Origin: a virus
Lineage: Duplodnaviria; Heunggongvirae; Uroviricota; Caudoviricetes
Direction: 5' to 3' (one strand)
DNA: 64,000 nucleotides
IMG/VR virus record: IMGVR_UViG_3300028887_000096
Coordinates: 19,562 to 83,561 of that record
Position 1 is the stretch's first letter. Every line of letters begins with the position of its first letter. Of this stretch, positions 3,696-46,263 are shown piece after piece. The translations under genes and the position numbers were made by a program. The notes beneath the pieces are model-generated. The model was not told the origin of the DNA and made no database searches. It saw only the letters and a list, made by a program, of their open reading frames with translations.

Positions 3696-4901
3696 ATGAT
3701 AGAAATTCCGGGAAAATACTGTACGGCGAAGGTCTATACCGACAATGTCGAGGAGGCCGCGCTTAAACAGATAATGAACTTGATGAACCAGCCGTTTGCG
3801 GCGGGTTCCAACTGCGCAATCATGCCCGACTGCCACGCGGGCGTGGGTTGCGTTATCGGCCTCACAGCAAAGATTACCGACAAGGTGGTCCCGAACCTGG
3901 TGGGGGTGGATATCGGGTGTTCTATGCTTGTCCTCAAAGTGGACAAGTCGTTCGCGTTCGACCTGAAGCAGGTGGACAAGATTTGGCACCGCGACATCCC
4001 GTCCGGCATGAACCACCGCAAGTCCAAGCACAAGTATGCCGACAAGGCTGACCTCGAAAACATGATAGCCCCGGTGAACGTGGACAAGCTGAAACTGTCC
4101 ATCGGGACACTCGGCGGGGGCAACCACTTCGGCGAAATCAACGTAGATGATGCGGGCAACCATTACATCGTCATCCACTCCGGTTCCCGGCACCTCGGCA
4201 TCGAGGTATGCCGCTATTACCAGGACCTCGCTATCAAGTATCACCGCAACGACCGTGCGGCGATGCAGGATGCCATCAAGCAGCTGAAGAAGGCTGGCCG
4301 CGAGCGCGAAATCGAGGAAACCTTGCAGAAGATGAACGCGGACCGTCCGGCAATCCCGAACGAGCTCGCCTATCTCGAAGGCGCCCTCATGGAAGACTAC
4401 CTGCATGACATGAAGATTGCGCAGGAGTTTGCCATCTGGAACCGCGAGGCAATGATGGACGTGTTGGTTGACGGCCTGGGTATCAAGCCAAGGTATGTGC
4501 TGGATAAGTGGTGTACCATGCACAATTACGTTGACTTGGAACATAGAATTTTGCGCAAGGGAGCAATCTCATTGCAGAAAGATGAGATTGCACTAATTCC
4601 GATGAACATGAGGGATGGTTCCCTTATCGTCCGCGGCAAGGGCAACTCCGACTGGAACTGTTCCGGTCCGCACGGTGCCGGCCGTCTCATGTCCCGTTCC
4701 AAGGCCAAGGAGACGCTCAGGATGGAAGACTTCAAGGCTTCCATGGAAGGCATTTATACGACCTGCGTTTCGACCGGGACGATTGACGAGAGCCCGATGG
4801 CCTACAAGCCGTTCGACGAAATCATGCGCAACATCGAGCCGACCGCCGACATCGTCGAGCGCATCCGCCCGATCTACAACTTCAAGGCGTCGGAGGGATA
4901 A
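3696..4901 (+). CDS. rtcB: RNA-splicing ligase RtcB
   Basis: PDCHAGVGCVIG, GGGNHFGE, HSGSRHLG, HNY and GPHGAGR motifs typical of RtcB. The promoter motif ends 7 nt before the ATG. Confidence 0.85.
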   Translation: MIEIPGKYCTAKVYTDNVEEAALKQIMNLMNQPFAAGSNCAIMPDCHAGVGCVIGLTAKITDKVVPNLVGVDIGCSMLVLKVDKSFAFDLKQVDKIWHRDIPSGMNHRKSKHKYADKADLENMIAPVNVDKLKLSIGTLGGGNHFGEINVDDAGNHYIVIHSGSRHLGIEVCRYYQDLAIKYHRNDRAAMQDAIKQLKKAGREREIEETLQKMNADRPAIPNELAYLEGALMEDYLHDMKIAQEFAIWNREAMMDVLVDGLGIKPRYVLDKWCTMHNYVDLEHRILRKGAISLQKDEIALIPMNMRDGSLIVRGKGNSDWNCSGPHGAGRLMSRSKAKETLRMEDFKASMEGIYTTCVSTGTIDESPMAYKPFDEIMRNIEPTADIVERIRPIYNFKASEG

Positions 4902-6032: not shown

Positions 6033-7937
6033 ATGGACTACAAGAGAATATATGACATCTTCGTTGCCGACAGAAAGGCACACCCGACTACGGAACTGTA
6101 TTCCAGCCTCCACCACATCATCCCGCTCGGGGACGGTGGCAAGGACTGCGAGGAGAACCTGGTTCGCCTTTCCATCCGCGACCACCAGTTCGCCCACAAA
6201 CTGATTGACCGCTTTACCGGGCGCAAGGCATGTCCCGAGTTCACCAGGTTTACTTCAAAGCGTCAGATTGCCGCAATGCAGAAGAACGGCATCGACCCGA
6301 AACGCGCAAAGCGTGCCAAGGCCGGTGTCGGAAAGTTCCGCCTGTGGCTGAATGATACGGCCAAGACCCTTGCCGATGACTTTTCCCAGCAGATCTGCGA
6401 AAGGGCCGCTGAGGCTAACCCGGGAATGTCCGTGGTTCCGTTCATTACCAAGCAGTCCTTCCCGATCTGGCTGTCCGCGCTTAACGGGCTGAGCAAGCAC
6501 TTCGTCGTCAGTACCCAGAGCGACGAAAACCAGGCGGTCGGCCCGGGCATCAAGATGAGGGCGGGCGAAGTCATCCATCTCGGGATGGAGAGCGAAATCG
6601 AGCTCGTGGTGAAGAATGTCGGGGAATATCTCAAAGGCAACCTCATGATGGCGATTACCGACGGCGTGGCCCGCGCATACGCATTTACCCGCGCCACCGA
6701 GAAGGACCGGGAAATGTTCATCAACACGGCCACCCGCATGATGCGCATTACCCTCGGCCAGCTGAAGGCCACTTACCGCGTAATCGAAATCCGCCATGTG
6801 TATGAAGTCGCCGACCGCTATGTCACCCGAGTGGTGAATGCCGCAATCATCGACCGCGGGGTGACCGAGTATATCGACATGCTCACCCATCCGGTCCTGA
6901 CGGAAAATGTTGATAAGGTGTTCGGAATGTTGGCAACCCTTGCTGACGAGGCTCCCGTCGATCCGGTCCTCGGTAACACGATGCACCTTATCGTAAAATA
7001 CGCGCTCGACAAGTATGTTGACCCGGGCTATTCGATGTCCGGCGACCTGCGCAAGGGCATCGTCTATTGCGCATGCAACGACCTTGCGAGAAAACTCGCA
7101 ACGAAAAAAGACGTACTCGCCACGCATGACCTGAATAAGCTCACGTTCCACGCATGGCGTGAGGTGTTCGGTGTCCTGTTCGGCAGCATCGCCGACGCAG
7201 AAAAGTCCGCGCCCGGCGTCCCGGACTTGCAGGCGGCATATCGCACCTGCACCGACGAAGGTCTCCATGACGACATCATGGCCGGCCTCCCGGTCGCCAA
7301 TGAGCGTATTACCGCATGTCTCGTCGGGATGGTGGCTGCGAAGCTGCGCCCGCATGTGGATGACGGGATGCTTACCCAGGAAGAGTTTGACTTTGCAATC
7401 GAACCGCGCAGGGTAATGTCTGTCGTCATGCCGGAACTGCAGACCTACACGAAGACGCTGAAAGATGCCAAGACCAGGCTCCCGCTTGACCAGTTTGCCA
7501 AGAAGTGCCTGTTCGGGTATGCAACGTCATATTCCCGCAAGATTATCCTCTACATGCTCGGCAAGGATGTGACCGAGGAGACCTATGGCCGCATTGCCGG
7601 TCTTGACGAGAAGTATATCACTGCCACGTTTACGGCGAAGTGCCGTCTCAATGTCGGCATGGTCACTGCAGCCGTCGAGCCCGGGGCATGTTTCCAGCTT
7701 CCGGTCCCGTTCCATGCGATGATCAAGAAGGCAATCGACGACATTAGCATGTTTACTCAGATTTCTAAGGCCAAGGCCATGCTTCTCAAATCGGAAATCT
7801 CCGCGGAACTCGGTAAGCGTATCATGGAAGACGTTTCCCTCCGTCGCCCGACGAGCGTCCAGTTCAACAATGTCTTTAAAGAAATCCGCCTGATTACCGC
7901 CGAGCATGTCCAGAAGGTTCTCGGGGGTGACAAATGA
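6033..7937 (+). CDS. Large protein with N-terminal HNH nuclease motif
   Basis: HHIIPLGDGGKDCEENLVRLSIRDHQFAH near the N-terminus, followed by an unknown domain of about 550 aa. Promoter motif 42 nt upstream. Confidence 0.7.
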   Translation: MDYKRIYDIFVADRKAHPTTELYSSLHHIIPLGDGGKDCEENLVRLSIRDHQFAHKLIDRFTGRKACPEFTRFTSKRQIAAMQKNGIDPKRAKRAKAGVGKFRLWLNDTAKTLADDFSQQICERAAEANPGMSVVPFITKQSFPIWLSALNGLSKHFVVSTQSDENQAVGPGIKMRAGEVIHLGMESEIELVVKNVGEYLKGNLMMAITDGVARAYAFTRATEKDREMFINTATRMMRITLGQLKATYRVIEIRHVYEVADRYVTRVVNAAIIDRGVTEYIDMLTHPVLTENVDKVFGMLATLADEAPVDPVLGNTMHLIVKYALDKYVDPGYSMSGDLRKGIVYCACNDLARKLATKKDVLATHDLNKLTFHAWREVFGVLFGSIADAEKSAPGVPDLQAAYRTCTDEGLHDDIMAGLPVANERITACLVGMVAAKLRPHVDDGMLTQEEFDFAIEPRRVMSVVMPELQTYTKTLKDAKTRLPLDQFAKKCLFGYATSYSRKIILYMLGKDVTEETYGRIAGLDEKYITATFTAKCRLNVGMVTAAVEPGACFQLPVPFHAMIKKAIDDISMFTQISKAKAMLLKSEISAELGKRIMEDVSLRRPTSVQFNNVFKEIRLITAEHVQKVLGGDK

Positions 7938-8480: not shown

Positions 8481-8858
8481 ATGGATTGGGAAATTACCGG
8501 CTATGACAGGTTCTGTGGGGAGATTTCCAGCCCGCCGATCGGCGATGGCGCTGAACCGCAGAAGACCCCGCACGAGATAATCTCGGAAACGTTCATGTTC
8601 TACGGGGAAATGAACCCGGCGAAGATGAACGGTTTCTGCCGTGACCGCATGCGCACGGTATGTTTCAATTCGTTGCGGGCCGCACTCGGACTGTCCCCCA
8701 GCATCCAGGGCGACCTTGTCATATCGAAGCTGGTCGGCGCCTTCTACGGCCATTACGGCAGCGTGTCGGACTTCGACATGATCGTGTCGCTCTATGACAT
8801 GCCGCTGAAAAAGACCGTCGAATACATCAACGGCCTTGATCCCACTAAGGTAATGTAG
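8481..8858 (+). CDS. Hypothetical protein
   Basis: ORF ends 1 nt before the tRNA array. Confidence 0.6.
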   Translation: MDWEITGYDRFCGEISSPPIGDGAEPQKTPHEIISETFMFYGEMNPAKMNGFCRDRMRTVCFNSLRAALGLSPSIQGDLVISKLVGAFYGHYGSVSDFDMIVSLYDMPLKKTVEYINGLDPTKVM

Positions 8859-8932
8859 AGCACTCGGAAGGGCTCGAACCTTCGCATGGGGGCTTTGCAG
8901 GCCCCTGCCTTGACCAACTTGGCTACGAGTGC
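8859..8932 (-). tRNA. tRNA-Cys(GCA)
   Basis: Cloverleaf by eye. Acceptor GCACTCG/CGAGTGC, anticodon loop CTGCAAA, T-arm GGTTCGAGCCC. Confidence 0.75.
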
Positions 8933-8943
8933 ATAAGATGTAG

Positions 8944-9025
8944 TCCCTTCGGGGAGAATCGAACTCCCACGCCTTTCAGCACAAGGGTTTGAACCGAGCG
9001 CGTCTACCAGTTCCGCCACGAAGGG
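8944..9025 (-). tRNA. Class II tRNA, Leu(CAA)-like with imperfect anticodon stem (possible pseudo-tRNA)
   Basis: Acceptor CCCTTCG/CGAAGGG, T-arm GGGAGTTCGATTCTCCC, loop TTCAAAC, but 2 mismatches in the anticodon stem. Confidence 0.5.
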
Positions 9026-9028
9026 GTA

Positions 9029-9099
9029 TTGGGCGGTGACGGCTCGAACGTCATCCGAGGGGTTCAAAGCCCCTAGTGCTACCATTACACCACGGCCCA
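9029..9099 (-). tRNA. tRNA-Gln(TTG)
   Basis: Anticodon arm AGGGG-CTTTGAA-CCCCT, T-arm TGACGTTCGAGCCGTCA. Confidence 0.7.
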
Positions 9100-9109
9100 A
9101 AAATTTTAG

Positions 9110-9193
9110 TCGGCAGGGCGGGACTCGAACCCGCACGTCCTTTCGGACACCGCATCCTGAGTGCGGCGCGGCTACCAATTACGCCACCTGCCG
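9110..9193 (-). tRNA. tRNA-Leu(CAG)
   Basis: Class II. Loop CTCAGGA, variable arm TGTCCGAAAGGACG, T-arm GCGGGTTCGAGTCCCGC. Confidence 0.8.
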
Positions 9194-9198
9194 ATTAG

Positions 9199-9280
9199 TC
9201 GGCCATGAGGGCATCGAACCCACACGTCTTGCGACAGACGATCTTAAATCGTCCGCGTCTGCCAATTCCGCCAATAGCCG
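9199..9280 (-). tRNA. tRNA-Leu(TAA)
   Basis: Class II. Anticodon arm GACGA-TTTAAGA-TCGTC. Confidence 0.7.
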
Positions 9281-9284
9281 ATTA

Positions 9285-9368
9285 TCTCGTCGGTGGGACT
9301 CGAACCCACACGCCCTTTCGGGCACAGGCCCCTCAAACCTGCGCGTCTACCAATTCCGCCACGACGAG
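9285..9368 (-). tRNA. tRNA-Leu(GAG)
   Basis: Class II. Acceptor CTCGTCG/CGACGAG, loop TTGAGGG, variable arm TGCCCGAAAGGGCG. Confidence 0.8.
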
Positions 9369-9374
9369 GAATAG

Positions 9375-9449
9375 GGTGACCGACGGGACTCGAACCCGCA
9401 ACGGCTGCCTTCACAGGGCAGGGCTCCACCAGTTGAGCTACGGCGCACC
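9375..9449 (-). tRNA. tRNA-His(GTG) with G-1
   Basis: Loop CTGTGAA. Extra 5' G pairs with the C73 discriminator. One bulged nucleotide in the acceptor stem. Confidence 0.65.
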
Positions 9450-9623
9450 ATAAGTGCCGATGTTTTTATTGTAGGAGAATCGGAGCTCCGGTAACTTGAT
9501 GACAACAATGGCCCGGTAATAGCAAGCCAAGCACGGTCAGGGAAACGACCGCGAGGAGCAGGAGCCAGAATGTGATGTTGCCGCGTACCATGAGGATACT
9601 CCGTTAGTAAGAAAAATTCGTAG

Positions 9624-9712
9624 AGGAGACAGCAGGATTCGAACCTGCGGGGGCTTTGAGGGCCCCACGGCGTTAGCACCGCCGCGCCTTAAACCAGCTC
9701 GGCCATGTCTCC
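9624..9712 (-). tRNA. tRNA-Ser(GCT)
   Basis: Class II. Acceptor GGAGACA/TGTCTCC, loop GTGCTAA, T-arm GCAGGTTCGAATCCTGC. Confidence 0.7.
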
Positions 9713-9722
9713 AAATTTTTAG

Positions 9723-9811
9723 TGGGCAGGACAGGATTCGAACCTGTGATGTTTACCCAAAGGGACCTGATTTACAGTCAGGCTGCTTCAAACCAGCTTG
9801 CATACCTACCC
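9723..9811 (-). tRNA. tRNA-Tyr(GTA)
   Basis: Class II. Anticodon arm CCTGA-CTGTAAA-TCAGG, T-arm ACAGGTTCGAATCCTGT. Confidence 0.75.
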
Positions 9812-9823
9812 AAAATGTCTTCG

Positions 9824-9907
9824 CGGAAGCGGAGGGAGTCGAACCCCCAAGCCCTTGCGGAACCACGGTTTTCAAGACCGCTTGAGTCGCCAGTCTCTTG
9901 CGCTTCC
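9824..9907 (-). tRNA. tRNA-Ser(TGA)
   Basis: Class II. Acceptor GGAAGCG/CGCTTCC, loop CTTGAAA, T-arm GGGGGTTCGACTCCCTC. D-arm atypical. Confidence 0.6.
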
Positions 9908-9911
9908 ATAG

Positions 9912-9984
9912 CTCCACCTCCTGGACTCGAACCAGGGACCATCCGATTAACAGTCGGGCGCTCTACCAACTGAGCTAAGGTGGA
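9912..9984 (-). tRNA. tRNA-Asn(GTT)
   Basis: Acceptor TCCACCT/AGGTGGA, loop CTGTTAA. Confidence 0.8.
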
Positions 9985-10000
9985 ATAAAAATCACGTCCA

Positions 10001-10798
10001 TTACGGTGTTGATTGGTTGGGATTTGCCCATATCCCACATTTATACGGGCCATATTTTGCCTCCCAGGCGGCAATCCGGGATTTCAATTCTTCTAGCGTA
10101 ATGGAGCATTTGGAACCCTTGGAAGTATTTTTGGTTTGCAAAATCAGTTTGCAATTCGCGGGATGCTCGATAATCGTCGCGGGCACTTTATTGATGTAGC
10201 CCGCCTTTACGCTATACATGTGGTCGCGTGATACCCCGCCTGGGTTGTTGCCTTTATTGACGGGGCTGTACCACCCATGTTTCTTTATCAATTCAAAATC
10301 AAACTCGTCTGGATAATCGGCAAGGTTGAATTTAAATTTGCATGCGTTCCTGTAGTTGATGAACTCGGCGGAATACGCATTTGCACGTTGCCGTTTTCTG
10401 TACTCAATCCGGCATTGGTCCGAACAATATACACGGGTGTGCAATTTATGATGTATTTCAGCGCCGCAGTTTTTACAGCGCGTTACCGGAACCGAAATCC
10501 TGGTTCCCGCAACGATGGTTACTCTTTTGAGTTTTTCGCTAAGTTTTTGCCTTAACTCAGGTGTTCGTTCTCGACCATTGGCACAGCTGCGTGAACAGTG
10601 GAGAGGCCATCTGCCTTTCTCATAGTCGATATTTCGTATCGCTTTTGTAAATTCTTTATCGCATTTGGTGCATGTAAATGTATGTTCAGTTTTTGTTTGG
10701 TTATATTCTTTTATGCGGTGCATACTCAACTTGGCCTTTTCACGGCCTAGTTCAATATTTCGCCGATTTGCGGCTATTCGTTTTTCAGTGATAACCAT
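10001..10798 (-). CDS. HNH homing endonuclease with N-terminal zinc-ribbon motifs, inserted in the tRNA array
   Basis: C-terminal SRDHMYSVKAGY...HPANCKLILQTKNTSKG (HNH-like D-H/N/N-K). Several CxxC pairs in the N-terminus. Local GC is about 42%, against 58% for the surrounding DNA. GGAGA RBS 8 nt before the ATG. Confidence 0.7.
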   Translation of the reverse strand: MVITEKRIAANRRNIELGREKAKLSMHRIKEYNQTKTEHTFTCTKCDKEFTKAIRNIDYEKGRWPLHCSRSCANGRERTPELRQKLSEKLKRVTIVAGTRISVPVTRCKNCGAEIHHKLHTRVYCSDQCRIEYRKRQRANAYSAEFINYRNACKFKFNLADYPDEFDFELIKKHGWYSPVNKGNNPGGVSRDHMYSVKAGYINKVPATIIEHPANCKLILQTKNTSKGSKCSITLEELKSRIAAWEAKYGPYKCGIWANPNQSTP

Positions 10799-10816
10799 AA
10801 GAATATCTCCATTTAG

Positions 10817-10889
10817 TGCCAGGAACTGGACTCGAACCAGTATCTGAGGCTTTTCAGACCCCCGCCGTGACCATCTTGGCTATCCTGGC
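10817..10889 (-). tRNA. tRNA-Phe(GAA)
   Basis: Acceptor GCCAGGA/TCCTGGC, loop CTGAAAA. Confidence 0.75.
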
Positions 10890-10900
10890 ATAAAGTTTAG

Positions 10901-10973
10901 TAGCCCCTGCCGGATTCGAACCGACGTTCCTTGGCTGAAAACCAACTGTCCTAGTCCACTAGACGAAGGGGCC
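10901..10973 (-). tRNA. tRNA-Glu(TTC)
   Basis: D-arm GTCTAGTGGACTAGGAC, loop TTTTCAG, T-arm CGGTTCGAATCCG. Confidence 0.7.
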
Positions 10974-10976
10974 ATA

Positions 10977-11053
10977 TAGGCTATACTGGGATCGAACCAG
11001 TGACCTCGGGATTCGTAGTCCCGCGCTCTAAAATCCGGCTGAGCTAATAGCCT
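10977..11053 (-). tRNA. tRNA-Arg(ACG)
   Basis: Acceptor AGGCTAT/ATAGCCT, anticodon arm CGGGA-CTACGAA-TCCCG. Confidence 0.75.
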
Positions 11054-11061
11054 GAAAGTAA

Positions 11062-11134
11062 TGGACCCGGTGGGTAACGATCCCATCACAGTAACTGTGC
11101 CACAGTCACTCGCCACCATGGATCATGCGAGCCC
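11062..11134 (-). tRNA. tRNA-Ala(GGC), unusual D-arm and T-loop
   Basis: G3:U70 in the acceptor GGGCTCG/CGGGTCC, loop GTGGCAC. T-loop ATCGTTA is noncanonical. Confidence 0.55.
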
Positions 11135-11193
11135 AAAATAAAATCAACACCGTAATGTCAATATGCTGAATGGTTTCTCGAACCATTCGTGTT

Positions 11194-11267
11194 CGTGGAC
11201 CGCTAGGGGCTCGAACCCTACACACCTACCTTGCGAAGGTAGATCGCCACCGGAGGAACATGGCAGC
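11194..11267 (-). tRNA. tRNA-Ala(CGC), unusual D-arm
   Basis: G3:U70 in the acceptor GGGCTGC/GCGGTCC, anticodon arm CTACC-TTCGCAA-GGTAG, T-arm TAGGGTTCGAGCCCCTA. Confidence 0.6.
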
Positions 11268-11283
11268 CCAAATTTGTTTTTCG

Positions 11284-11358
11284 TGGACCCGGTGGGGCTC
11301 GAACCCACCACAACCGGCTTGCAAAGCCAGCTCGCCTCCAAGCGGATCATGCGAGCCC
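11284..11358 (-). tRNA. tRNA-Ala(TGC), unusual D-arm
   Basis: G3:U70 in the acceptor, anticodon arm CTGGC-TTTGCAA-GCCGG, T-arm GTGGGTTCGAGCCCCAC. Shares 5' half and flanking spacer with the other Ala genes. Confidence 0.6.
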
Positions 11359-11380
11359 AAATGTTTGCCGCCTAACGAAA

Positions 11381-11415
11381 GAACCCCGGTTCAGTTTTCC
11401 TGTACCGGGGTTCTC
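11381..11415. terminator. Bidirectional rho-independent terminator
   Basis: GAACCCCGGT...ACCGGGGTTC hairpin with T-rich flank. Confidence 0.6.
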
Positions 11416-11670
11416 TTCGAGTAAGGCTAAGAAGAAGAGGTTATCACCCGGTCAGGCCACTTTCGGCATAGCATGCGAAATGACGGCTGGCATTGCTGGA
11501 TGCCAAGCGTTCATTCGAGAGATATGCTGAAAATAGTTGCTTCATGGGTTTTTCCTTTTCTGCCATTAAGTTTAGCAATTTATTTTTCGTCCGGCAAGGG
11601 TTTTTGACCCCATTTTGAAGAAATAATAAATAAATAAGTTTTGTGTAAGTTTCCCGTAAGAAAATGACCC

Positions 11671-12225
11671 CTACATGAAGAAATCTGCATACATTTCGGT
11701 GGTCTGTTCGTCCTCGGAAAGGGTTGCGCGGAACTCCGCGAGGCGGCTGCTGAGGTAGTTGAACTCCTTCTGGTACCTGTCGTAGCGCTCGTAGTCCTTG
11801 TCGCTCTTCAAGTTGTTGCCGACAATCGTCATGTTGTCTTCGAGGTCGGCCAGCTTGATCTTCGTCGTGATGAGGTTCTCGCCGACCTTCTTGATGTAGT
11901 CGTCCCTGCCGAGGCTCTTGCGCCTGGTGAGGATTTCTACGCATTTCCACACGACCTCCGGGAAATAGAGCATGAGGTCCGATGTGGTCATGTTCCCTTC
12001 CTCTATGACATCGTGGAGATAGGCGATGGCGGTGATTGAGTCGTCCCCATACTGGCGGTCAAGCGCATTGGCCACCCGGGTCGGGTGCTGCACGTATTCC
12101 TGGCCGCTCTTGTCCAGCTGGCCCTCGTGCGCGAACGTTGCGAACTCGCATGCCTTCTGGACCATGCTTCCGTCGAACCTGTTCATTCGTTTAAGGAAAG
12201 CCTTGATTTCGTCGCGTGAACGCAT
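11671..12225 (-). CDS. HD-domain hydrolase, SpoT/Mesh1-like (p)ppGpp hydrolase candidate
   Basis: FAHEGQLDKSGQEYVQHP..VA, AIAYLHDVIEEG and IKLADLEDNM match HD motifs of the RelA/SpoT hydrolase domain. Confidence 0.65.
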   Translation of the reverse strand: MRSRDEIKAFLKRMNRFDGSMVQKACEFATFAHEGQLDKSGQEYVQHPTRVANALDRQYGDDSITAIAYLHDVIEEGNMTTSDLMLYFPEVVWKCVEILTRRKSLGRDDYIKKVGENLITTKIKLADLEDNMTIVGNNLKSDKDYERYDRYQKEFNYLSSRLAEFRATLSEDEQTTEMYADFFM

Positions 12226-24971: not shown

Positions 24972-25098
24972 AATCCCCGATTTTGTGCACATTTGTGCAC
25001 TAACCTTGGCACCGTTTTTATTATAAACAATGACTACCCGCCGACGGAAACGGTCCTCCCGCACCGCCGGCCCAACTTCAACCTAAAGGATTCCTACA

Positions 25099-27668
25099 TG
25101 GAAGAATTACAGGACACGAAAATGTCGGAGCGCTCGTTCTTGAAGCAGGTCAAGAAGAAGGATGGCCCCCGGCAGAAGTTTGATCCCCTTAAAATCGAAC
25201 GCTGCATCACCCACGCACTCAATGACGCGAAGTGCACGCTCCCCCAGGAAAAAATCGAGGAAATGACCGGTGATGTGGTTGATTTGCTGTATGACTTGAA
25301 GCAGAAGTGCGTGAGCAATGAATCGGTTGCCATCGCTGTAAAGAAAGTTTTACGCGAAGTCAGCATGCCCGCCTATGATGCCTATGTCATCTTCCGCAAC
25401 AACCGCGACCGCGAACGCACCCTCCAGTCCCCCCTTATCAAGACCGTCCGCGAAATCAAGCATGCCGAGTTGCAGAGCTCCAATACCCTCCGCGACAACG
25501 CGAACGAGGCTGGCGGCACCCCGGCCGGCATGTTCGGCAAGATCGCCGGCGAAACCAACAAGATGTATAACCTGCTCGACAATGTGAGCAGGAAGTATGC
25601 GGAAGAACACACCAACGGCTACCTCCACATCCACGACCTCAACATGTATGACCTGACCTTCAACTGCCTCTTTGCCCCGGTAGGCAAGAAGTTGAGGACA
25701 GGCTTCGATTCCGGTACCGGCTTCCAGCGTCCGGCACAGACCATCCAGAGTGCTGCCGCGCTTACCGCCGTGATTCTCCAGTTGCAGTCCAACCAGCAAT
25801 ACGGCGGCATCGCCTGCGACAACTTCGATTTCGAGCTCGCCCCGTTCGTGGACCGTTCCTTCCGCAGGAACCTTGCCATCGAACTGAATGCGATGGCCGA
25901 ATATCGGGAAGAGGATGAGAACCTCGCCGAATATCGCACGCTCCCCGAAGAGTCCGACGACATCGAGAAGACTGTCAAGCGTATCGCGAAGGTGCTCGGC
26001 AAGGCCAATGTGTCCATGAACCAGCCGAGGAAGAAGCTCTATTGCAGTTTCCCGAAGAAGTGCGTCGACCGCGCATGGCTCTACACCGATGCCGATACGC
26101 ATCAGGCGATGGAGGCCCTTGTCCACAACTTGAACTCCTTGCAGTCTCGCTCTGGAAACCAAGTTCCGTTCTCGTCGTTGAACTTTGGCCTTGATACTTC
26201 CAACTGCGGACGAATGGTCAGCAAGAACCTCATGCGTGCCCAGTATGAGGGCATGGGCGACGGCCTGACCGCCATCTTCCCGATCCTCATCTTCAAGCTC
26301 ATGAAGGGTTATACCAAGAACCCGACCGACCCGAACTACGACCTTTACGAACAGGCCGTCGAATGTCTGGCCCGCCGTTTCTACCCGAACTTCGTGTCGG
26401 TGGACAGCACCTTCAACAAGCCCTATGTGAAGTACCGGACCAAGGAAATCGAACTCGCCGATGGGTTGCGCAACATCAAGCTCCGCGGAAAGGATGAGGG
26501 TTTCGCTGAATACCACGGGATCATCGAACGCTCCGAATGCCCGGAATATGAATACGAGGTGGAGCCGGGCGAATACTGGGAAATCGTCGAATACGATGAA
26601 AAGAAGCTCTCCCTTCGCAAGCTGATCGAGAACACCACCATTGCGACGATGGGATGCCGCACCCGTGTCATCGGCAATGTCAACGGCCCGGAACAGACTA
26701 CCGGCCGTGGCAACTTTGCCTTCCATACGATGAACCTCCCGCGCCTTGCCATCGAATCCCATATCGAGAAGGACAGTACCGACGAACGCATCGCACGCTT
26801 CTACGAGAAGCTCGACGCATTGCTCGACGATGCCAAGGAAAGCCTTGTTGAACGCTTTAACCTCGTGTGCCAGAAGACCTACGAGCGCTATCCGTTCACG
26901 ATGCAGGAAGGTTTGTACCTCACTTCCGATGACAAGAAGCATGAACTGTCCGATACCATCGCCGAGGTGATGAAGCAGTCCACGCTCTCCATCGGCTATA
27001 TCGGCATCGCCGAGACGATCAACCTCCTTACCGGCAAGATTTACGGTGTCGATCATGAGGTGGATGGACTTGCGGTGGCCATCGTGAAGCACATCCGTGA
27101 CTTCTGCGACGCTACCCAGAAGAAGACCCACATGAACTGGTCCTGCTTCGCCACCCCGGCAGAAGCGGTCGCGGGCCGGTTCGCCACCATCGACGCCAAC
27201 AAGTTCGCCGACAACAAGAAACTTGCCGATGTGAACCTTGAACGCATCTTCGGAAAGGGCTACTACACCAATTCCCACATGATGGACTTCTCTCTCGATG
27301 TCTCCCTCGACGAGAAGATCAAGGTGGAAGCCCCGTTCCATGCCCTCACCAATGCCGGGCATATATTCTACTACAAGTTGAACGGCGACTTGACGAAGAA
27401 CATCCCGGCAGTGAAGGCTGCCATCGACGCCATGTATGACGGCAACCTTGGGTACTTCACCGTCACGATGGATTCGGACGACTGTCTCAAGTGCGGCTAC
27501 CATGGCATCATCGACAATGTATGCCCGAAGTGCGGCTGCAAGGATGAACGCTATTTCGTCCGTGTCAGGCGAATTACCGGATATTTAACCGGTTCACCGC
27601 GGAAGAGTATTCTGGATGCTTGGTGCGATGGAAAGAAGAAGGAGCTCATCGATCGGCACAATATCTAG
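25099..27668 (+). CDS. nrdD: Anaerobic ribonucleoside-triphosphate reductase NrdD
   Basis: Class III RNR features. C-terminal CPKCGC zinc ribbon and glycyl-radical motif RRITGYLTG. Start reassigned to MEELQDTK, because the ORF-track start is an upstream extension. Confidence 0.8.
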
Positions 27669-27781: not shown

Positions 27782-29692
27782 ATGGAGCTCAATTTCATTT
27801 GTAAAATTTGTAATAAGCCGTTTGGCAAAACCGGGTTGACTAATCACATCCAGCGCACCCATAAAATGTCATATAAGGAGTATTATGACACTTTCATTGA
27901 TGGAAGCGAGCACCTGTGTCCCTATTGCGGCAAAGAGTGTGGGTTTGTTAGCCATTATGGTTATTACGAAACTTGTTGTGATCCCACATGTGTCAGAAAG
28001 GCGCAGCACCGGACAATGTATGCTCGATATGGTAAGGCCTGTCGCCACCCAGACAAAATTAAGGCAAAACCAATTATTGACTATCCATACCATTGCGAAA
28101 TATGTGGTCAAGGCACAAAGAATTTGCCGATGCTGAATAGGCATCTGAAAAAATATCACCCTGATGTAGATATTGAAAACTACTATAATACATATCTGGG
28201 AGTTAAACCACAAGTATGTGAGGTATGCGGTGGCCGAGCAAAGTGGTTGGGAACGCATTACCATAATGTTTGTGGATGCCCGGAGTGTACTAGCGTATTG
28301 CGTGGCAAGAATAATGCAATGAATAACCCGGTCTACCGCAAAAAAGCGAGGGATGCGCTAATTGCATTGCCGGACGAAAAAAAGCGGGCAATTCGCGAAA
28401 AGGTGGAGCAAACTTGCTTGGCACGCTTTGGGTATCGGCATAATTGGAGTTCCCCCGAACTGCGTGAGGCTGGCCAGTACGCCACATGCAAGGCACTATA
28501 TGGCGATCGGAATTACCATAATGTTGCGCAAATGCAGAATACTTGCACAGAACGGTTTGGCGTTAGGTCGTTTTCACAGACTGTTTCGTTTCAATCAAAA
28601 ATGTGGCATAAATTCAAGGTGGGTGAAATTACATTTGACTCGTCGTATGAGTATGCACTATATAATTTCTTGAATGCCGCTAAATTGCCATTTATTTATC
28701 ATCCGAAGGAATCTATTCGTTATGAATATGCCGGTAAAGAACACATGTTCTTTCCAGATTTCAAAATAAATGGCCATTTTTACGAGGTTAAGGGCGAGCA
28801 CCTGTATAAATATATGCAGACCCCGAACACTAAGGAGCATGCGAAACTGGAGTGCATTTTAGCAAACAATATCACACTTATAACAAAATGCGATGTATTT
28901 GCGTTTATTGATGCCGTATTTGGAAAATCGTTGAGTATTGATGCTATCGTTGAGCAATGCTTGCATACCGAGTTCCCGGGCAATGCGAAATGGCCTGCAT
29001 CACATCCCATTTGGGATTGCTTTGTTCCCGGGCATACTGATCCCCGCACTGCATGGGCAGACCCGGTGTTGGTTCGTAAAGGTGTTCTTAATCTAGTAAA
29101 GACATTGAACGACGCTCTAATTTCTGGAAAATATCCGGCATTCTGCACAAGATATATCAAATCTCTGCTGAGTGGAAATTACTTTGATAAGGTCCTGGAT
29201 AGGTTTACTATTGCAAAGATCGCGCCGAAAGTAACTGCATTACACGAAACCGAACTGTTGCGAATTATTGAGGAATCCGGTGTAGATTTAAGCCCCGGTG
29301 TGTATTGCCCAATGGCTGGGTTTGGCGGCATAGTTCGCGGTGTCAGACGGTGGTTTGAAACTCGCGGTATGCGCGGAGATATTGAGGCCTATGACATCAA
29401 TGACCGGTTCTGTAATTGGTATGGGTGGACTAGGCGTGATGTTTTGGCACAGGTGGTGCACACGAACAAGGTGGTTGTTGTTTGCCCTCCGTTTGGAAAG
29501 CAGTATGAGCACTGGAAGGGAACACCGGACGAAATGTCGGATATTACATTTAAACAATGGGTTTCCTTGATTAAGGAGCATGTCATTGCACCGAATTACA
29601 TATTTATTGGCCCAGAAGTCGATGACGGCAAGAACCGTTGTGGCCTATTTAAACGAAAGGTTGGAATTTCATTATATAAGGATGGTATATGA
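27782..29692 (+). CDS. Multi-zinc-finger protein with C-terminal DNA-methyltransferase-like motifs; low-GC insertion between nrdD and nrdG
   Basis: C2H2-like units (CKICNKPFGKTGLTNHIQRTH, CEICGQGTKNLPMLNRHLKKYH). C-terminal MAGFGGIVRG (motif I-like) and VVVCPPFG (motif IV-like). GC is about 40%, against about 60% in the flanks. Own promoter motif and terminator. Confidence 0.6.
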   Translation: MELNFICKICNKPFGKTGLTNHIQRTHKMSYKEYYDTFIDGSEHLCPYCGKECGFVSHYGYYETCCDPTCVRKAQHRTMYARYGKACRHPDKIKAKPIIDYPYHCEICGQGTKNLPMLNRHLKKYHPDVDIENYYNTYLGVKPQVCEVCGGRAKWLGTHYHNVCGCPECTSVLRGKNNAMNNPVYRKKARDALIALPDEKKRAIREKVEQTCLARFGYRHNWSSPELREAGQYATCKALYGDRNYHNVAQMQNTCTERFGVRSFSQTVSFQSKMWHKFKVGEITFDSSYEYALYNFLNAAKLPFIYHPKESIRYEYAGKEHMFFPDFKINGHFYEVKGEHLYKYMQTPNTKEHAKLECILANNITLITKCDVFAFIDAVFGKSLSIDAIVEQCLHTEFPGNAKWPASHPIWDCFVPGHTDPRTAWADPVLVRKGVLNLVKTLNDALISGKYPAFCTRYIKSLLSGNYFDKVLDRFTIAKIAPKVTALHETELLRIIEESGVDLSPGVYCPMAGFGGIVRGVRRWFETRGMRGDIEAYDINDRFCNWYGWTRRDVLAQVVHTNKVVVVCPPFGKQYEHWKGTPDEMSDITFKQWVSLIKEHVIAPNYIFIGPEVDDGKNRCGLFKRKVGISLYKDGI

Positions 29693-39150: not shown

Positions 39151-39669
39151 ATGTCAAACGAAAATGAAACCGTTGTTGTCCCGCTCTCCAAGATGCTCGT
39201 AACCGAAAAGAAGCCGTATGAAGGCGAACTACAACCACCGCCGTTCGCTTCCGACTGGCCGTTCCTCCCGAGCGAAATCCCGGGAGTCGACGTTTCCAAC
39301 GCATCGACGGATATTACTCCCGAAATGGACATCAAGGCTCTCGCCATGGCCGCACTCCGTATCCAGCGCGATGCGAAGCGCTATGCCGCGATCAATACCA
39401 ACAAGGGCACCGGCACCTATTCGTCGAAGCTCCTTGCCAAGAACATCGCGTGCGCCATCAAGGCGGCAATCAACGCCAGTTACGTCGGCAAGAACCTCGG
39501 CGACACTCTCGGCGACGCGTATTACCTGGAGAACGTCCGTAACTCCTATGTCGACCCGGGCTGCCTTTCCAAGGACGAACGTGTTGCCAAGGCAATCGAG
39601 CAGGCCAGGGGTCTCCGTCTCCGTTTCATCGAAGAAATTATCGAAGCCGGCAGCAAAGGCAGAATGTAA
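39151..39669 (+). CDS. Hypothetical protein
   Basis: Promoter motif at 39122-39136. Confidence 0.6.
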   Translation: MSNENETVVVPLSKMLVTEKKPYEGELQPPPFASDWPFLPSEIPGVDVSNASTDITPEMDIKALAMAALRIQRDAKRYAAINTNKGTGTYSSKLLAKNIACAIKAAINASYVGKNLGDTLGDAYYLENVRNSYVDPGCLSKDERVAKAIEQARGLRLRFIEEIIEAGSKGRM

Positions 39670-41690
39670 TGTCCAAGAACCGTAATTTACGCGAGGCGAA
39701 GACTGCCAAGAACGACGAGTTCTACACCAGTTACAGCGACGTCTCCCACGAGATGAAGGCGCTGTTCGAACGCGACCCCGGCTTCTTCGCCAACCGCACC
39801 GTCCTGTGTCCGTGCAACGACCTTGAACACCCGGGGTTCCGCGACTTCTTCATCGACAACTTCCAGGGACTGGGCCTCCGCAGGCTCACCTGTACCAGCT
39901 ATGTCCCTGGCCATCGCGGCCACGCGGAGACGGTTTCTCTCGGACGGGACGGCAATATTAAGGTTGCCCGATGGGTGCTGGATGGAGACGGGGACTTCCG
40001 TTCCCCGGAAATCACGAAGTTCATGCAGCATTCCGACCTGGTCGTGACCAACCCCCCTTTCAGCTGTTTCTCTTCAGATACCGAGGTGCTCACCGACGGA
40101 GGCTGGAAGCTGTTTACCGCCGTCAAGCCGGGCGACCTCGTCCTCAGCATGGACCCGGCAACCCGCAAGGTCGAATACGCCCGCATCGTTCGTTTCTACG
40201 ACACCCCGTACAAGGGCGAGCTGTTCCACTTCAAGAAGTCCGGCATGGACCTCATGGTGACCGGAAACCACCGCATGATCTGCAACGAGCGCAAGGACCT
40301 GTTCTGCCGCGCTGACGAGGTGGTCCCCCACTACCACTCGGTGCCTATCCGCGGGCTGGAATACGACTGGAGCGGCATCCACGAGGAGTTCTTCACGCTC
40401 CCGAGCGTCATGCAGAACGAACGCTACACCCACAAGGACATCACCGTCCCGGAAAAGAAAATCCCGATGGGCGACTGGCTGGAGTTCCTCGGGTTCTGGC
40501 TTGCCGACGGCTGCGTCCGCTTCGGCAACAACGTGAACGGCAATCCCCGCTACACGATCAGCATCAAGCAGAACGAGGACAACGAGAAGTACGTCATCGA
40601 CCTTTACGCCAAGATCGGCTTTCCGTGCAAGGTGGAACGGTCCAGCAAGACCAGGAACCACAACTACACCGTGTACAGCAAGCAGCTGTGGACCTACCTC
40701 GCGAAGTTCGGCAAGGGCATCGAGAAGAAGTTCCCGACGGAAGTCCTCTACATGGAACCGGCCTACATGGCCCGCTTCCTCGACGGCTACATGAAGGGCA
40801 ACTCCCATCTCTCTCACATCGGCGGGAAGGTGAGCCAGGCAATCGGCAGTACCGCCCCGAAGCTGTGCGAGGGCCTGCAGGAGCTCATCCTGAAAGTGCG
40901 CGGCGTGCTCGTGCAGTTCATCCAGCGCAAGTCCAAGGGAAACCCCTACTGGATGGCGAACTGGGCAATCGAGACCAAGAAGCGCAACACGGACTACCCG
41001 GTGCCGGAGAAGGTCCAGTATGACGGGACCGTGCACTGCCTGGAACTCGACCGCAACCATACCATGCTCGTCCGCAGGAACGGCCTGGCGACCTGGTGCG
41101 GGAACTGCTTCCGGGACTTCGTGGACTGGGTCGACGGCGCCGACAGGGACTTCTATGTCATCGGCAACAAGAACTGCGTCAACTACAACGAGGTGTTCCG
41201 CAAGCTGCGCTCCGGCAGGATCCAGCTCGGCATCACCTCCCCGGACGAGTTCGGGACGCCGGACGGCGAGACCGAGAAGGTCACCGGCCTTTGTCGGTGG
41301 TACACGAACATGTTCGTCCCCCGGACGGAAGACGAGCGAGGCATCTGTCTGCGGGCCACCTACGACCCGGCGAAATACCCCAAGTTCGAGAACTTCGACG
41401 CGATCAACGTCGACAGGGTTTCCGACATCCCGAAGGACTACTACGGGGTGATGGGCGTCCCGATTACGTTCTTCGACCATTTCGACCCGAAGCAGTTCGA
41501 GGTCCTTGGCCGGAGCGGGGACACCGCGTGGGTATTCGGCGAGTGCGAGTTCTTTACGCCCCCGCCGGAGGAACGGCAGAAGGCGTACAAGGCCTACTAC
41601 AAGAACTGGCGGGTGCAGAACAGCTACCTGCTCGACGAGAACGGGATGCCGAAGTGCATCTATTACAGAGTTTTCATAAGGAGAAGATGA
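39669..41690 (+). CDS. N6-adenine DNA methyltransferase interrupted by an intein
   Basis: N-extein ends ...DLVVTNPPFS (motif IV). The intein runs from CFSSDTEVLTDGGW to ...NGLATWCGN. The C-extein resumes at CFRDF. Confidence 0.7.
   Translation: MSKNRNLREAKTAKNDEFYTSYSDVSHEMKALFERDPGFFANRTVLCPCNDLEHPGFRDFFIDNFQGLGLRRLTCTSYVPGHRGHAETVSLGRDGNIKVARWVLDGDGDFRSPEITKFMQHSDLVVTNPPFSCFSSDTEVLTDGGWKLFTAVKPGDLVLSMDPATRKVEYARIVRFYDTPYKGELFHFKKSGMDLMVTGNHRMICNERKDLFCRADEVVPHYHSVPIRGLEYDWSGIHEEFFTLPSVMQNERYTHKDITVPEKKIPMGDWLEFLGFWLADGCVRFGNNVNGNPRYTISIKQNEDNEKYVIDLYAKIGFPCKVERSSKTRNHNYTVYSKQLWTYLAKFGKGIEKKFPTEVLYMEPAYMARFLDGYMKGNSHLSHIGGKVSQAIGSTAPKLCEGLQELILKVRGVLVQFIQRKSKGNPYWMANWAIETKKRNTDYPVPEKVQYDGTVHCLELDRNHTMLVRRNGLATWCGNCFRDFVDWVDGADRDFYVIGNKNCVNYNEVFRKLRSGRIQLGITSPDEFGTPDGETEKVTGLCRWYTNMFVPRTEDERGICLRATYDPAKYPKFENFDAINVDRVSDIPKDYYGVMGVPITFFDHFDPKQFEVLGRSGDTAWVFGECEFFTPPPEERQKAYKAYYKNWRVQNSYLLDENGMPKCIYYRVFIRRR
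40065..41105 (+). mobile_element. LAGLIDADG-type intein (about 347 aa) inside the methyltransferase
   Basis: Hint block A C-x-x-x-T-x-V-L-T-x-x-G. Two LAGLIDADG-like motifs (EFLGFWLADGCV, ARFLDGYMKGNSH). C-terminal VHCLELDRNHTMLV...N followed by a +1 Cys. Confidence 0.65.
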
Positions 41691-45560: not shown

Positions 45561-45656
45561 TTCGCTGGTAAGCGCCGGGAGCCGTCGGACGGACAACTCG
45601 AGTAAGGTCGCCCGCTCCTCCCGGCGCCGGGACAGTCAGCACATGTCCCACCCCCT

Positions 45657-45728
45657 AGCCCTCGGGTGTGACTGGTAGCATCGCAGACTCCAAATCTGCA
45701 GGATGGCGTTCGAAGCGTCAGGGGGCTG
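45657..45728 (+). tRNA. tRNA-Trp(CCA)
   Basis: Acceptor AGCCCTC/GGGGGCT, anticodon arm GCAGA-CTCCAAA-TCTGC, T-arm TGGCGTTCGAAGCGTCA. Confidence 0.6.
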
Positions 45729-45732
45729 TTAC

Positions 45733-45805
45733 GCATCTGTAGCTCAGTTGGTAGAGCGCATCCTTGCCATGGATGAGGTCACCGGATCGAAGCCGGCCAG
45801 ATGCT
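45733..45805 (+). tRNA. tRNA-Gly(GCC)
   Basis: D-arm GCTCAGTTGGTAGAGC, loop TTGCCAT. Confidence 0.75.
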
Positions 45806-45814
45806 CGAAATTAC

Positions 45815-45885
45815 GCGCCTATGGTGTATTGGCTGCATCGCTGCCTTCCAAGCAGCGGGATCCGTTTCGACTACGGATAGGCGCT
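45815..45885 (+). tRNA. tRNA-Gly(TCC)
   Basis: Acceptor GCGCCTA/TAGGCGC, loop CTTCCAA. Confidence 0.75.
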
Positions 45886-45892
45886 TTAAAAT

Positions 45893-45963
45893 GCTTCTAT
45901 ATGCTAATGGTAGACGAGCGGACTCTTAATCCGTGGGTTCTGGTTCGAGTCCAGATAGGAGCA
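45893..45963 (+). tRNA. tRNA-Lys(CTT), isotype tentative
   Basis: Loop CTCTTAA, T-arm TCTGGTTCGAGTCCAGA. Confidence 0.55.
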
Positions 45964-45970
45964 CTAACAT

Positions 45971-46043
45971 TCCGGCGTAGCTCAGTTGGTAGAGCGGCCC
46001 CTTCATACGGGGTTGGTCGCAGGTTCGAGCCCTGCCACCGGGA
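45971..46043 (+). tRNA. tRNA-Met(CAT)
   Basis: D-arm GCTCAGTTGGTAGAGC, loop TTCATAC, T-arm GCAGGTTCGAGCCCTGC. Confidence 0.7.
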
Positions 46044-46057
46044 CTAACAATCAACTT

Positions 46058-46131
46058 CGATGCGTGGTGTAATTGGTTAGCACGCCGCTCTGATAAGGCG
46101 GTAGTTGTTGGTTCGAGTCCAGCCGTATCGA
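46058..46131 (+). tRNA. tRNA-Ile(GAT)
   Basis: Loop CTGATAA, T-arm GTTGGTTCGAGTCCAGC. Confidence 0.65.
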
Positions 46132-46185
46132 CTAAGGAGTAAGAATATGAACAGACGAAAACGTAATACCTCGCGAATTTGATTC

Positions 46186-46258
46186 ACGGGTGTGGCGAAA
46201 TTGGTATCGCAATAGACTTTTAATCTATGGGCTGCGGGTTCGATCCCCGTCACCCGTA
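46186..46258 (+). tRNA. tRNA-Lys(TTT)
   Basis: Anticodon arm ATAGA-CTTTTAA-TCTAT, T-arm GCGGGTTCGATCCCCGT. Confidence 0.75.
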
Positions 46259-46263
46259 TAACT

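Follow-up and report, generated by a model that had tools for sequence, protein, structure and literature searches.

Dense arrays of tRNA genes are known from phages and, as L-arrays, from bacteria. In the literature (T4 SegB region; the Anabaena trn operon, PMC8421152; PMC4758250), such arrays hold up to about 40 tRNA genes of most isotypes, with an endonuclease open reading frame (ORF) inside and RtcB nearby, and in this respect the arrays, the embedded homing endonucleases and the neighbouring RtcB are already known (PMC4758250, PMC8421152). Arrays of the same kind lie in the Pirellulales genomes discussed below and in the sequence analysed in this paper, a stretch of 64,000 nucleotides from a Caudoviricetes phage (IMG/VR record IMGVR_UViG_3300028887_000096, positions 19,562 to 83,561), which is called the window throughout. 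Three tandem genes of its minus strand are the main subject here: tRNA-Ala-like genes with the anticodons UGC (11284-11358), CGC (11196-11269) and GGC (11062-11134), whose common non-canonical architecture is referred to as the scaffold. Most probably they are functional alanine isoacceptors on a conserved compact-core scaffold, in a phage array interrupted by a homing-endonuclease-like ORF. Text searches of the array papers PMC8421152 and PMC4758250 gave no description of this non-canonical tRNA-Ala scaffold, and none was found in an incomplete coverage of the literature on tRNA arrays, natural non-canonical tRNAs, allo-tRNA, cluster M phages and phage tRNA evasion. Individual members have long been deposited, some of them labelled tRNA-Ala (Myrna gp147). 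Because non-canonical tRNAs are known and individual members were already deposited, the feature in the window is not categorically new.

The three alanine genes and described tRNAs

Canonical tRNA-Ala, as seen in E. coli tRNA-Ala(UGC), Caulobacter phage CcrBL9 and Myrna gp152, shares many features with the scaffold: a 7-bp acceptor stem with G3:U70, the discriminator A73, an NGC anticodon whose loop has 7 nt and includes U33 and A37, G18 and G19, a 5-bp T stem with the loop UUCGAUU, and a location in tRNA arrays. The scaffold differs from it in the absence of a 4-bp Watson-Crick D stem, in the replacement of U8, A14, R15 and A21 by C8, C14, C15 and G21, in a covarying Watson-Crick pair 26:44 with a 6-bp anticodon stem, in a UG(N)G variable loop, in an invariant G48, and in a score below the threshold of the Rfam tRNA model RF00005 in 17 of 17 copies.

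All three loci in the window are units of 73-75 nt. Their 7-bp acceptor stems pair throughout, their anticodon loops have 7 nt and include U33 and A37, and each has a T arm. The tRNA-Ala identity elements G3:U70, A73 and an NGC anticodon can be read in each of them, and G3:U70 is the established identity rule of alanyl-tRNA synthetase (AlaRS) (PMC5389517). The UGC copy has the acceptor GGGCUCG/CGGGUCC, the D region CAUGAUCCGCUUGGAGGCGA, a 6-bp anticodon stem with the loop UUUGCAA, the variable loop UGUG and the T loop UUCGAGC. The CGC copy has the acceptor GGGCUGC/GCGGUCC, the D region CAUGUUCCUCCGGUGGCGA and the anticodon loop UUCGCAA, and its acceptor pairs 6:67 and 7:66 differ from those of the UGC copy in a compensatory manner (GC/GC against CG/CG). 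In the GGC copy the D region is CAUGAUCCAUGGUGGCGA and the anticodon loop is GUGGCAC. The D regions of the three genes are 18-20 nt long and follow CAUG(A/U)UCC..GG.GGCGA, without a Watson-Crick stem. In the register in which positions 10-13 of a canonical tRNA pair with 22-25, the partners would be U10:A25, G11.G24, W12.C23 and N13.G22, and positions 8, 14, 15 and 21 are C, C, C and G. The other canonical arms are present and are supported by covariation, namely the 7-bp acceptor, the 5-bp anticodon stem with its 7-nt loop, the 5-bp T stem with its 7-nt loop, and G18 G19, with the extra pair 26:44.

Remodelled cores have also been described in other tRNAs. tRNA-Pyl, tRNA-Sec and some mitochondrial tRNAs have compact cores and are functional adaptors (PMC7609411). 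The scaffold resembles tRNA-Pyl, tRNA-Sec and the mitochondrial tRNAs with reduced D arms in its 6-bp anticodon stem, its short variable loop, its altered D arm or loop, the loss of the U8:A14 type of contact, and its remodelled compact core. Unlike tRNA-Pyl and many mitochondrial tRNAs, it keeps G18, G19 and the T-loop consensus; unlike tRNA-Sec and allo-tRNA, it keeps the 7/5 geometry of acceptor and T stems. It further differs from the compact-core tRNAs reviewed in PMC7609411 in its alanine isotype and in being carried by phages and bacterial arrays, and it is absent from that review. The tRNA-like domain of tmRNA (RF00023) is another related structure. It has in common with the scaffold, known here from its sequence, the G3:U70 recognised by AlaRS, the acceptor/T-arm helix and a GG-containing D-loop analogue without a Watson-Crick D stem, whereas the scaffold has a full anticodon arm in place of the mRNA-like domain and pseudoknots.

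Distribution, covariation and constraint of the family

Searches of viral, metagenomic and reference sequences indicate that the scaffold is widely distributed. An exact 15-mer from the 5' half gave 52 matches in IMG/VR, 10 of which are full copies of the element in phage contigs of up to 424 kb; most of the 52 are chance matches in coding DNA. A pattern joining the acceptor start to the D motif found 35 real copies in viral contigs, more than 100 copies in metagenome contigs and 54 loci in a single scan of reference genomes, and all counts from such pattern-sampled collections are lower bounds, biased toward GGGCU-type acceptors. Nearly all of the reference loci belong to Planctomycetota of the order Pirellulales (Stieleria, Rhodopirellula, Rubripirellula, Bythopirellula, Aeoliella and other genera), and matches in Rhizobium, Streptomyces and similar genomes were set aside as chance occurrences in coding sequence. 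Comparison with deposited phages by BLAST showed the scaffold in the cultured Vibrio phage EniLVp02 (Straboviridae), the mycobacteriophages Bongo and Myrna (gp147), Pectobacterium phage Bobbio, the Pseudomonas Otagovirus phages PE09, phiPsa267 and others, and in the 595-kb uncultured phage LR756511. The records of Myrna gp147, EniLVp02 and PE09 annotate it as tRNA-Ala and some records as "tRNA-OTHER"; in many, such as Bongo and PegLeg, it is unannotated despite lying in a tRNA array. In the Pirellulales loci, ARAGORN shows that the element belongs to very large arrays, with as many as 39 tRNA genes in 8 kb. Its position there is conserved (Val-GAC, Thr-GGU, the element, [Ala-GGC], Ser-GCU, Arg-UCU), and canonical tRNA-Ala genes adjoin it. 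The scaffold is thus present in phages of several host phyla as well as in chromosomal arrays of Pirellulales, and it is not virus-specific.

Altogether 191 unique members with 25 different acceptor stems were collected, to which the three genes of the window are additional. Their anticodons are UGC (168), CGC (9), AGC (9) and GGC (4), apart from one parsing error, and all are alanine anticodons. The discriminator A73 is found in 188 of the 191. G3:U70 is present in all 128 and all 118 members of the two alignments described below and in all 191 collected, a figure that arises partly by construction, as the filters demanded a paired acceptor stem and, in the later set, U70. Several unrelated phage contigs carry more than one copy: L070, L251 and L273 each have GGC, CGC and UGC, L233 has CGC, UGC and GGC, and L176 has GGC and UGC. 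Within these sets the anticodons differ at position 34 alone. The nine members with AGC (A34), among them L055 3420-3492, L066 6343-6415, L189 1587-1659 and their relatives, would need either A-to-I editing outside the usual bacterial TadA substrate or a restriction to reading GCU.

A covariance model, R1, was built from 118 sequences that exclude the window and its close relative, and the whole window was searched with filters off. The three alanine genes scored 78.1 bits (UGC, E 1.6e-21), 77.0 bits (CGC, E 3.6e-21) and 73.7 bits (GGC, E 3.7e-20), and neither a canonical tRNA nor any other sequence of the window exceeded 27.5 bits, the score of its best canonical tRNA. With E-values of about 1e-20 to 1e-21 the three are not chance matches, and by score, D motif (3 of 3 copies), 6-bp anticodon stem and UG(N)G variable loop they belong to the compact-D family that R1 defines. 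One further match, at 55962-56042 on the plus strand (19.4 bits, GGGCCUGCAUGUUCC...GGUCCA), lies inside a long ORF and was judged a chance match in coding sequence. Standard detectors perform differently on the family. At nine family-bearing loci RF00005 found 102 canonical tRNAs at its gathering threshold and none of 14 scaffold copies, although some of these are annotated as tRNA-Ala in GenBank; with the window included, the total is 0 of 17. ARAGORN called 46 of 134 unique members and missed about two thirds.

Base pairing was counted on alignments A1 (128 sequences) and A2 (the 118 sequences used for R1). In both, 97% of cells are paired in the acceptor, 6-bp anticodon and T stems, and 13-15 of 18 pairs have changed on both sides, including every pair of the 6-bp anticodon stem and of the T stem. 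None of 500 shuffles reached the observed covariation score or paired-cell percentage, and pairing fell to 33-58% when the partners were shifted by 1-3 columns. Members had been selected for a fully paired acceptor, so that the evidence in this stem is limited to changes of pair type at 4:69, 5:68, 6:67 and 7:66. In ordinary tRNAs 26:44 is usually not a Watson-Crick pair; here it is CG, GC, AU, UA, UG or GU in 189 of 191 sequences. Since 26:44 covaries as a pair, the anticodon stem has 6 bp. The bases that are invariant or nearly so are G1-G3, A9, U10, G11, C14, (C15), G18, G19, G21, G22, C23, G24, A25, G35, C36, A37, U45, G46, G48, C56, U70-C72 and A73.

The family D region can be written (C/A)AUGWNCC-NN-GG-N(1-5)-GGCGA; it has no Watson-Crick D stem. 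The T arm that accompanies it is normal, and the variable loop is UG(N)G. The only search unbiased with respect to this motif was anchored in the 3' half (UUGCAA, UGNG, UUCGA, GGUCCA). It recovered the motif in about 50 of 60 unique sequences, a canonical GCUC...GAGC D arm in 4 of the 60, and other short D arms in a few. In this set position 8 is C or A, position 12 U or A and position 13 U, A or G, and C14 C15 and GGCGA are constant; the stretch before G18 G19 has 2-3 variable bases, and the one after it 1-5. Covariation cannot choose the register of the D region, because the candidate partner bases never vary. In a possible canonical register, U10:A25 and N13.G22 would flank the mismatches G11.G24 and W12.C23, with A9, U45 and G46 kept and the Levitt pair swapped to C15:G48. 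The invariant bases are equally compatible with a shifted register, in which C14:G22 and C15:G21 would form together with G11.A25 and W12.G24. The contacts proposed for the core are C15:G48, G22.G46 and U10:A25.U45. Three other structures were rejected. The commonest folding prediction for this region, G11-C15/G19-C23, relies on the unconserved variable base N20. A kink-turn does not fit the strand topology. A helix between acceptor bases 5-8 and GCGA(G) is not conserved among the members, in which the covariation of 6:67 and 7:66 is that of acceptor pairs.

Constraint on the three genes was assessed against the related contig RHMF01000032.1 (L230), which shares 95.7% identity with 13.3 kb of the window. 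Divergence in the array region is lowest in tRNA genes (16 of 1344 positions, 1.2%), higher in ORFs (38 of 927, 4.1%) and highest in spacers (29 of 380, 7.6%). Of the 222 nt of the alanine genes a single one has changed: the UGC and CGC copies are identical, and the lone change (A12 to U in the GGC copy) falls at a position that is variable in the family and at which U is the commoner state. The three alanine genes are under purifying selection. None of the marks of a pseudogene was seen, as their rate is not that of the spacers, their helices are intact and the family is conserved across phyla.

Function, decay and other roles

Because many phages and planctomycete arrays contain this scaffold too, the three genes are regarded as working genes and not as decaying copies. 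The anticodons UGC, CGC and GGC together read all four GCN codons. Among the database-supported ORFs of the window, whose third codon positions are 72% GC, alanine makes up 7.7% of codons (GCC 167, GCA 99, GCG 87, GCU 35), and since all four GCN codons are used, all three isoacceptors would be needed. Differences at position 34 alone between copies are as decoding predicts, rather than another role.

It is established that G3:U70 in the acceptor helix is what AlaRS recognises, that this enzyme charges minihelices, that EF-Tu binds to the helix of acceptor and T stems, and that G18 and G19 make up the elbow together with the T loop. Family membership, helix covariation, purifying selection, the restriction to alanine anticodons and the invisibility to standard detectors are shown by the data; charging with alanine, use on the ribosome and the three-dimensional fold of the D region we infer from the sequences. 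The AlaRS identity set (G3:U70, A73) stands on a normal 7-bp acceptor, the T arm is normal, and G18 G19 are retained for the elbow. In place of the D stem there is the nearly invariant (C/A)8-A-U-G-W-N-C14-C15 ... G18-G19 ... G21-G22-C-G-A25, pairing of 26:44 extends the anticodon stem to 6 bp, and the variable loop is shortened to UG(N)G. As the acceptor stem suffices for AlaRS, and the acceptor and T helix for EF-Tu, and both are intact, tRNA-Ala may be the isotype likeliest to survive replacement of the D stem. A tRNA of this isotype could accommodate the altered core without losing charging, delivery or use in decoding, and the scaffold could then have spread horizontally with phage and L-type tRNA arrays.

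Several observations count against functional isoacceptors. At the three loci RF00005, whose threshold is 29 bits, gave no match even at E<=10 in a 311-nt search, and ARAGORN made no call. The GGC copy has a single T-stem mismatch and the T loop AUCGUUA, in which the usual U54:A58 is swapped to A54...U58. CCA is not encoded in any of the three genes. In nearest-neighbour folding the structure of minimum energy is not the cloverleaf, and imposing the three helices yields no consistent D-region structure. The first search patterns fixed the D motif, so that its invariance in A1 is partly ascertainment. Finally, the absence of a canonical tRNA-Ala applies to the 64-kb window, and the remainder of the phage genome lies outside it. 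Some of these observations, namely the missing calls, the missing Watson-Crick D stem and the odd T loop, would be expected if the three genes were duplicates of tRNA-Ala whose D stem was lost by drift. Such decay is very improbable, however. The supposed defect is kept base for base in 191 unique phage and bacterial sequences whose helices change in a compensatory manner, the three genes diverge from their relative far less than the spacers do, and their anticodons have stayed alanine anticodons with complementary coverage. The odd T loop also recurs in unrelated contigs (the CGC copies of L070, L251 and L273), and is therefore better seen as a tolerated variant. The failure of RF00005 and ARAGORN is a test of the detectors and not of the genes, because all 14 other family members tested were also missed by RF00005.

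The original prediction can be considered in this light. It had described three consecutive tRNA-Ala genes that share G3:U70 and lack a canonical D stem, one of them with an ATCGTTA T loop, and all of this was confirmed on reading the sequence, the loop being that of the GGC copy. It had left open whether they are functional virus-specific variants or decaying duplicates. Covariation, purifying selection and the restriction to NGC anticodons favour function; decay is rejected, and the occurrence in Pirellulales arrays contradicts the virus-specific part. It had also proposed that scores below the tRNA threshold would speak against these loci. With RF00005 and ARAGORN the alanine genes formally fall below that threshold, but the conclusion does not follow, as the general models do not cover this architecture.

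Two further explanations place the genes outside ordinary decoding. As alanine-charged or merely tRNA-shaped RNAs, they might act as decoys for defence nucleases or toxins, or as alanine donors for a non-ribosomal transferase. A remodelled core could alter recognition by nucleases, modification enzymes and EF-Tu, the repair ligase RtcB is encoded 4 kb away, as it is also near the array of cluster M mycobacteriophages, and there are documented cases of phage tRNAs escaping anticodon nucleases (PMC10264068, PMC11555353). Even so, such a role is unlikely: position 34 has diversified to U, C, G and A while U33, G35, C36 and A37 stayed fixed, as expected for codon reading; the three genes are the sole alanine tRNAs among the 30 of a window with substantial alanine usage; and the acceptor/T helix keeps the standard 7/5 geometry used by EF-Tu. 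An origin in tmRNA, with the genes as tRNA-like domains or as parts of a two-piece (permuted) tmRNA, is suggested by the G3:U70 and missing D stem that both have in common and by sub-threshold Rfam matches at the three loci (RF00023 at 19.5 or 11.3 bits, 11281-11358; tmRNA_permuted, RF04321, at 17.1 bits, 11126-11308; and mascRNA). These tmRNA scores, at 11-19 bits, are far under the gathering threshold of 47 bits, and the permuted match simply spans two units, combining the 3' end of one with the 5' end of the other. The units have a complete anticodon arm with an alanine anticodon within their 73-75 nt, no mRNA-like reading frame, tag peptide or pseudoknot accompanies them, and ARAGORN finds no tmRNA, so that this origin is hardly credible. 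Functional alanine isoacceptors remain the best explanation.

The array, its surroundings and wider meaning

The 17 tRNA-like genes of the minus strand (8858-11358) consist of 13 called by ARAGORN (8858-11053), a tRNA-His found by Rfam alone, and the three alanine genes, which stand at the 5' end of the array. By ARAGORN the window has 26 tRNA genes, none of them for Ala, Val or His; Rfam at its gathering threshold confirmed most of these and added tRNA-His(GUG). The other 13 calls form a second array of canonical tRNAs at 45656-46732 on the plus strand (Trp, two Gly, two Lys, Met, Ile, Asp, Arg, two Pro and two Thr; ARAGORN and RF00005), and the window total is 17 + 13 = 30 tRNA genes for 19 amino acids. 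Phage and L-type arrays are defined (PMC4758250, PMC8421152) by at least about 2 tRNA genes per kb, many isotypes and often an embedded homing endonuclease; the first array of the window has 17 genes in 2.5 kb and an HNH-like ORF. Among deposited phages, BLAST found no close relative of this array as a whole, and the matches were to single tRNAs.

Each of the 14 remaining genes of the minus-strand array passes ARAGORN, RF00005 or both. From the upstream end, with RF00005 scores for genes also called by ARAGORN, they begin with tRNA-Arg(ACG) (10977-11053, 60.7 bits), tRNA-Glu(UUC) (10900-10973, 49.7 bits) and tRNA-Phe(GAA) (10816-10889, 62.8 bits). Beyond the HNH-like ORF follow tRNA-Asn(GUU) (9911-9984, 67.8 bits), tRNA-Ser(UGA) (9823-9907, for which Rfam gave merely a sub-threshold tRNA-Sec clan match of 42.8 bits), tRNA-Tyr(GUA) (9722-9811, 54.6 bits) and tRNA-Ser(GCU) (9623-9712, 52.6 bits). 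tRNA-His(GUG), which ARAGORN did not call, scored 43.7 bits with RF00005 at 9380-9443 (model positions 5-66), and its ends were read from the sequence as 9375-9449; it has G-1:C73 and a single bulged C in the 5' acceptor strand, and is unchanged in RHMF01000032.1. The array ends with tRNA-Leu(GAG) (9285-9368, 50.8 bits), tRNA-Leu(UAA) (9198-9280, 41.7 bits), tRNA-Leu(CAG) (9109-9193, 53.7 bits), tRNA-Gln(UUG) (9028-9100, 41.3 bits), tRNA-Leu(CAA) (8943-9025, 41.9 bits), whose anticodon stem reads with the mismatches U28.U42 and C29.U41, and tRNA-Cys(GCA) (8858-8932, 64.2 bits). U33 is near-universal in tRNAs. In the second array, tRNA-Thr(UGU) (46584-46656, plus strand) has C33 in the loop CCUGUAA, and C33 also occurs in 8 of the 191 scaffold tRNA-Ala, mostly planctomycete.

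Most of what had been predicted for the two arrays was borne out. The 17-gene array exists, and the count of about 30 tRNAs for 19 amino acids without Val holds, a T-arm motif scan of the window having revealed no further hidden tRNA, including tRNA-Val. The G-1 and bulge of tRNA-His, the two mismatches of tRNA-Leu(CAA) and the C33 of tRNA-Thr(TGT) were all found as described. The claim of all four Leu isoacceptors is correct in that there are four Leu genes, but the set is not a full one, as they cover four of the five bacterial Leu anticodons and UAG is absent.

The array is split between tRNA-Phe and tRNA-Asn by a 265-aa ORF (10001-10798, minus strand) with matches to phrog_23051 (9.8e-37) and to phrog_1271, "HNH endonuclease" (3.9e-8), and no Pfam match. 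It probably encodes an HNH-type homing endonuclease, and differs from its counterpart in RHMF01000032.1 at 35 of 798 nt (4.4%). A 41-codon ORF for a hydrophobic peptide (MVRGNITFWLLLLAVVSLTVLGLLLPGHCCHQVTGAPILLQ) lies between tRNA-Ser(GCU) and tRNA-His (9466-9591, minus strand), with 3 differences in the same relative. The 61-nt spacer between the CGC and GGC alanine genes (11135-11195, minus strand) contains a hairpin, GAAUGGUU-CGAG-AAACCAUUC (11168-11188), followed by TTGACA and an A/T-rich stretch. It could be an internal terminator and promoter; a consensus scan gave no flag there, and promoter and terminator counts over 8600-11700 were not above those of shuffles. Just upstream of the array, an HD_4 domain protein (RelA/SpoT-type hydrolase domain, 5e-8) is encoded at 11671-12225 on the minus strand. 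The gene for the RNA (tRNA) ligase RtcB (3696-4901, plus strand; Pfam PF01139, 3.6e-63) is about 4 kb from the array, and in cluster M mycobacteriophages RtcB directly follows the tRNA array, a pairing like that in the window.

Selfish elements are numerous in the window. NrdD, the anaerobic ribonucleotide reductase (24993-27668, plus strand; 891 aa), has a split Pfam match and probably holds an intein, an EcoRI-like adenine methylase (39669-41690, plus strand) carries a LAGLIDADG-like piece, and further homing-endonuclease-like ORFs are located at 6033-7937 and 27782-29692. The Pirellulales arrays have peculiarities of their own. Several tRNAs of normally short types (Arg-CCU, Arg-UCG, Glu-CUC, Val and the non-canonical Ala) reach 90-94 nt there, and they share a hairpin of about 20 nt, GACCACCGC-UNCG-CGGCGGUGCCC, inserted in the variable region (L101 7109-7201 and 7304-7395; L156 3865-3958 and 4740-4832; L118 1935-2027; L114 322-414 and 3843-3934). 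A conserved HNH endonuclease gene lies between tRNA-His and tRNA-Trp in the planctomycete L-arrays (L101 6291-6884; L114 3039-3416). Where sister arrays have tRNA-Arg(UCU), ARAGORN finds in L114 a 71-nt tRNA (2633-2703) with the amber anticodon CUA, which may be a suppressor.

A wider proposal can be put forward tentatively, though it is less likely than not. The scaffold might represent an undescribed, horizontally mobile structural class of alanine tRNA, found both in planctomycete L-arrays and in phages whose hosts include Actinobacteria, Proteobacteria and others. Its core would then be adaptive and not a frozen accident. It might, for example, help to escape host tRNA-targeting defence enzymes or modification needs, with the scaffold as part of a "translation autonomy" cassette that comprises the tRNA array, RtcB and a homing endonuclease. 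Phage tRNA-Ala would then be systematically under-annotated. The remodelled core might bring independence from s4U8 and dihydrouridine modification, or resistance to tRNA-targeting defence enzymes. The presence of RtcB and the HNH-like ORF nearby fits the theme of tRNA conflict, raised for phage tRNAs and L-arrays in PMC10264068, PMC11555353 and PMC8421152, and is no test of the adaptation idea.

For annotation, these results mean that a lineage of tRNA-Ala in phages and bacteria is invisible to the Rfam tRNA model and mostly to ARAGORN. Given this blindness of the detectors, the "missing Ala" of phage repertoires, as in the Bongo and PegLeg records, is likely an artefact, and analyses that compare phage tRNA content with codon usage inherit the error. 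For tRNA biology, the scaffold is a widespread natural elongator tRNA of bacterial type in which the acceptor/T helix and elbow are kept while the D stem and core contacts are replaced. It offers a test case for the real requirements of AlaRS, EF-Tu, RNase P, the CCA-adding enzyme, modification enzymes and the ribosome. In evolutionary terms, it provides a traceable marker of the horizontal exchange of tRNA arrays between phages and bacteria.

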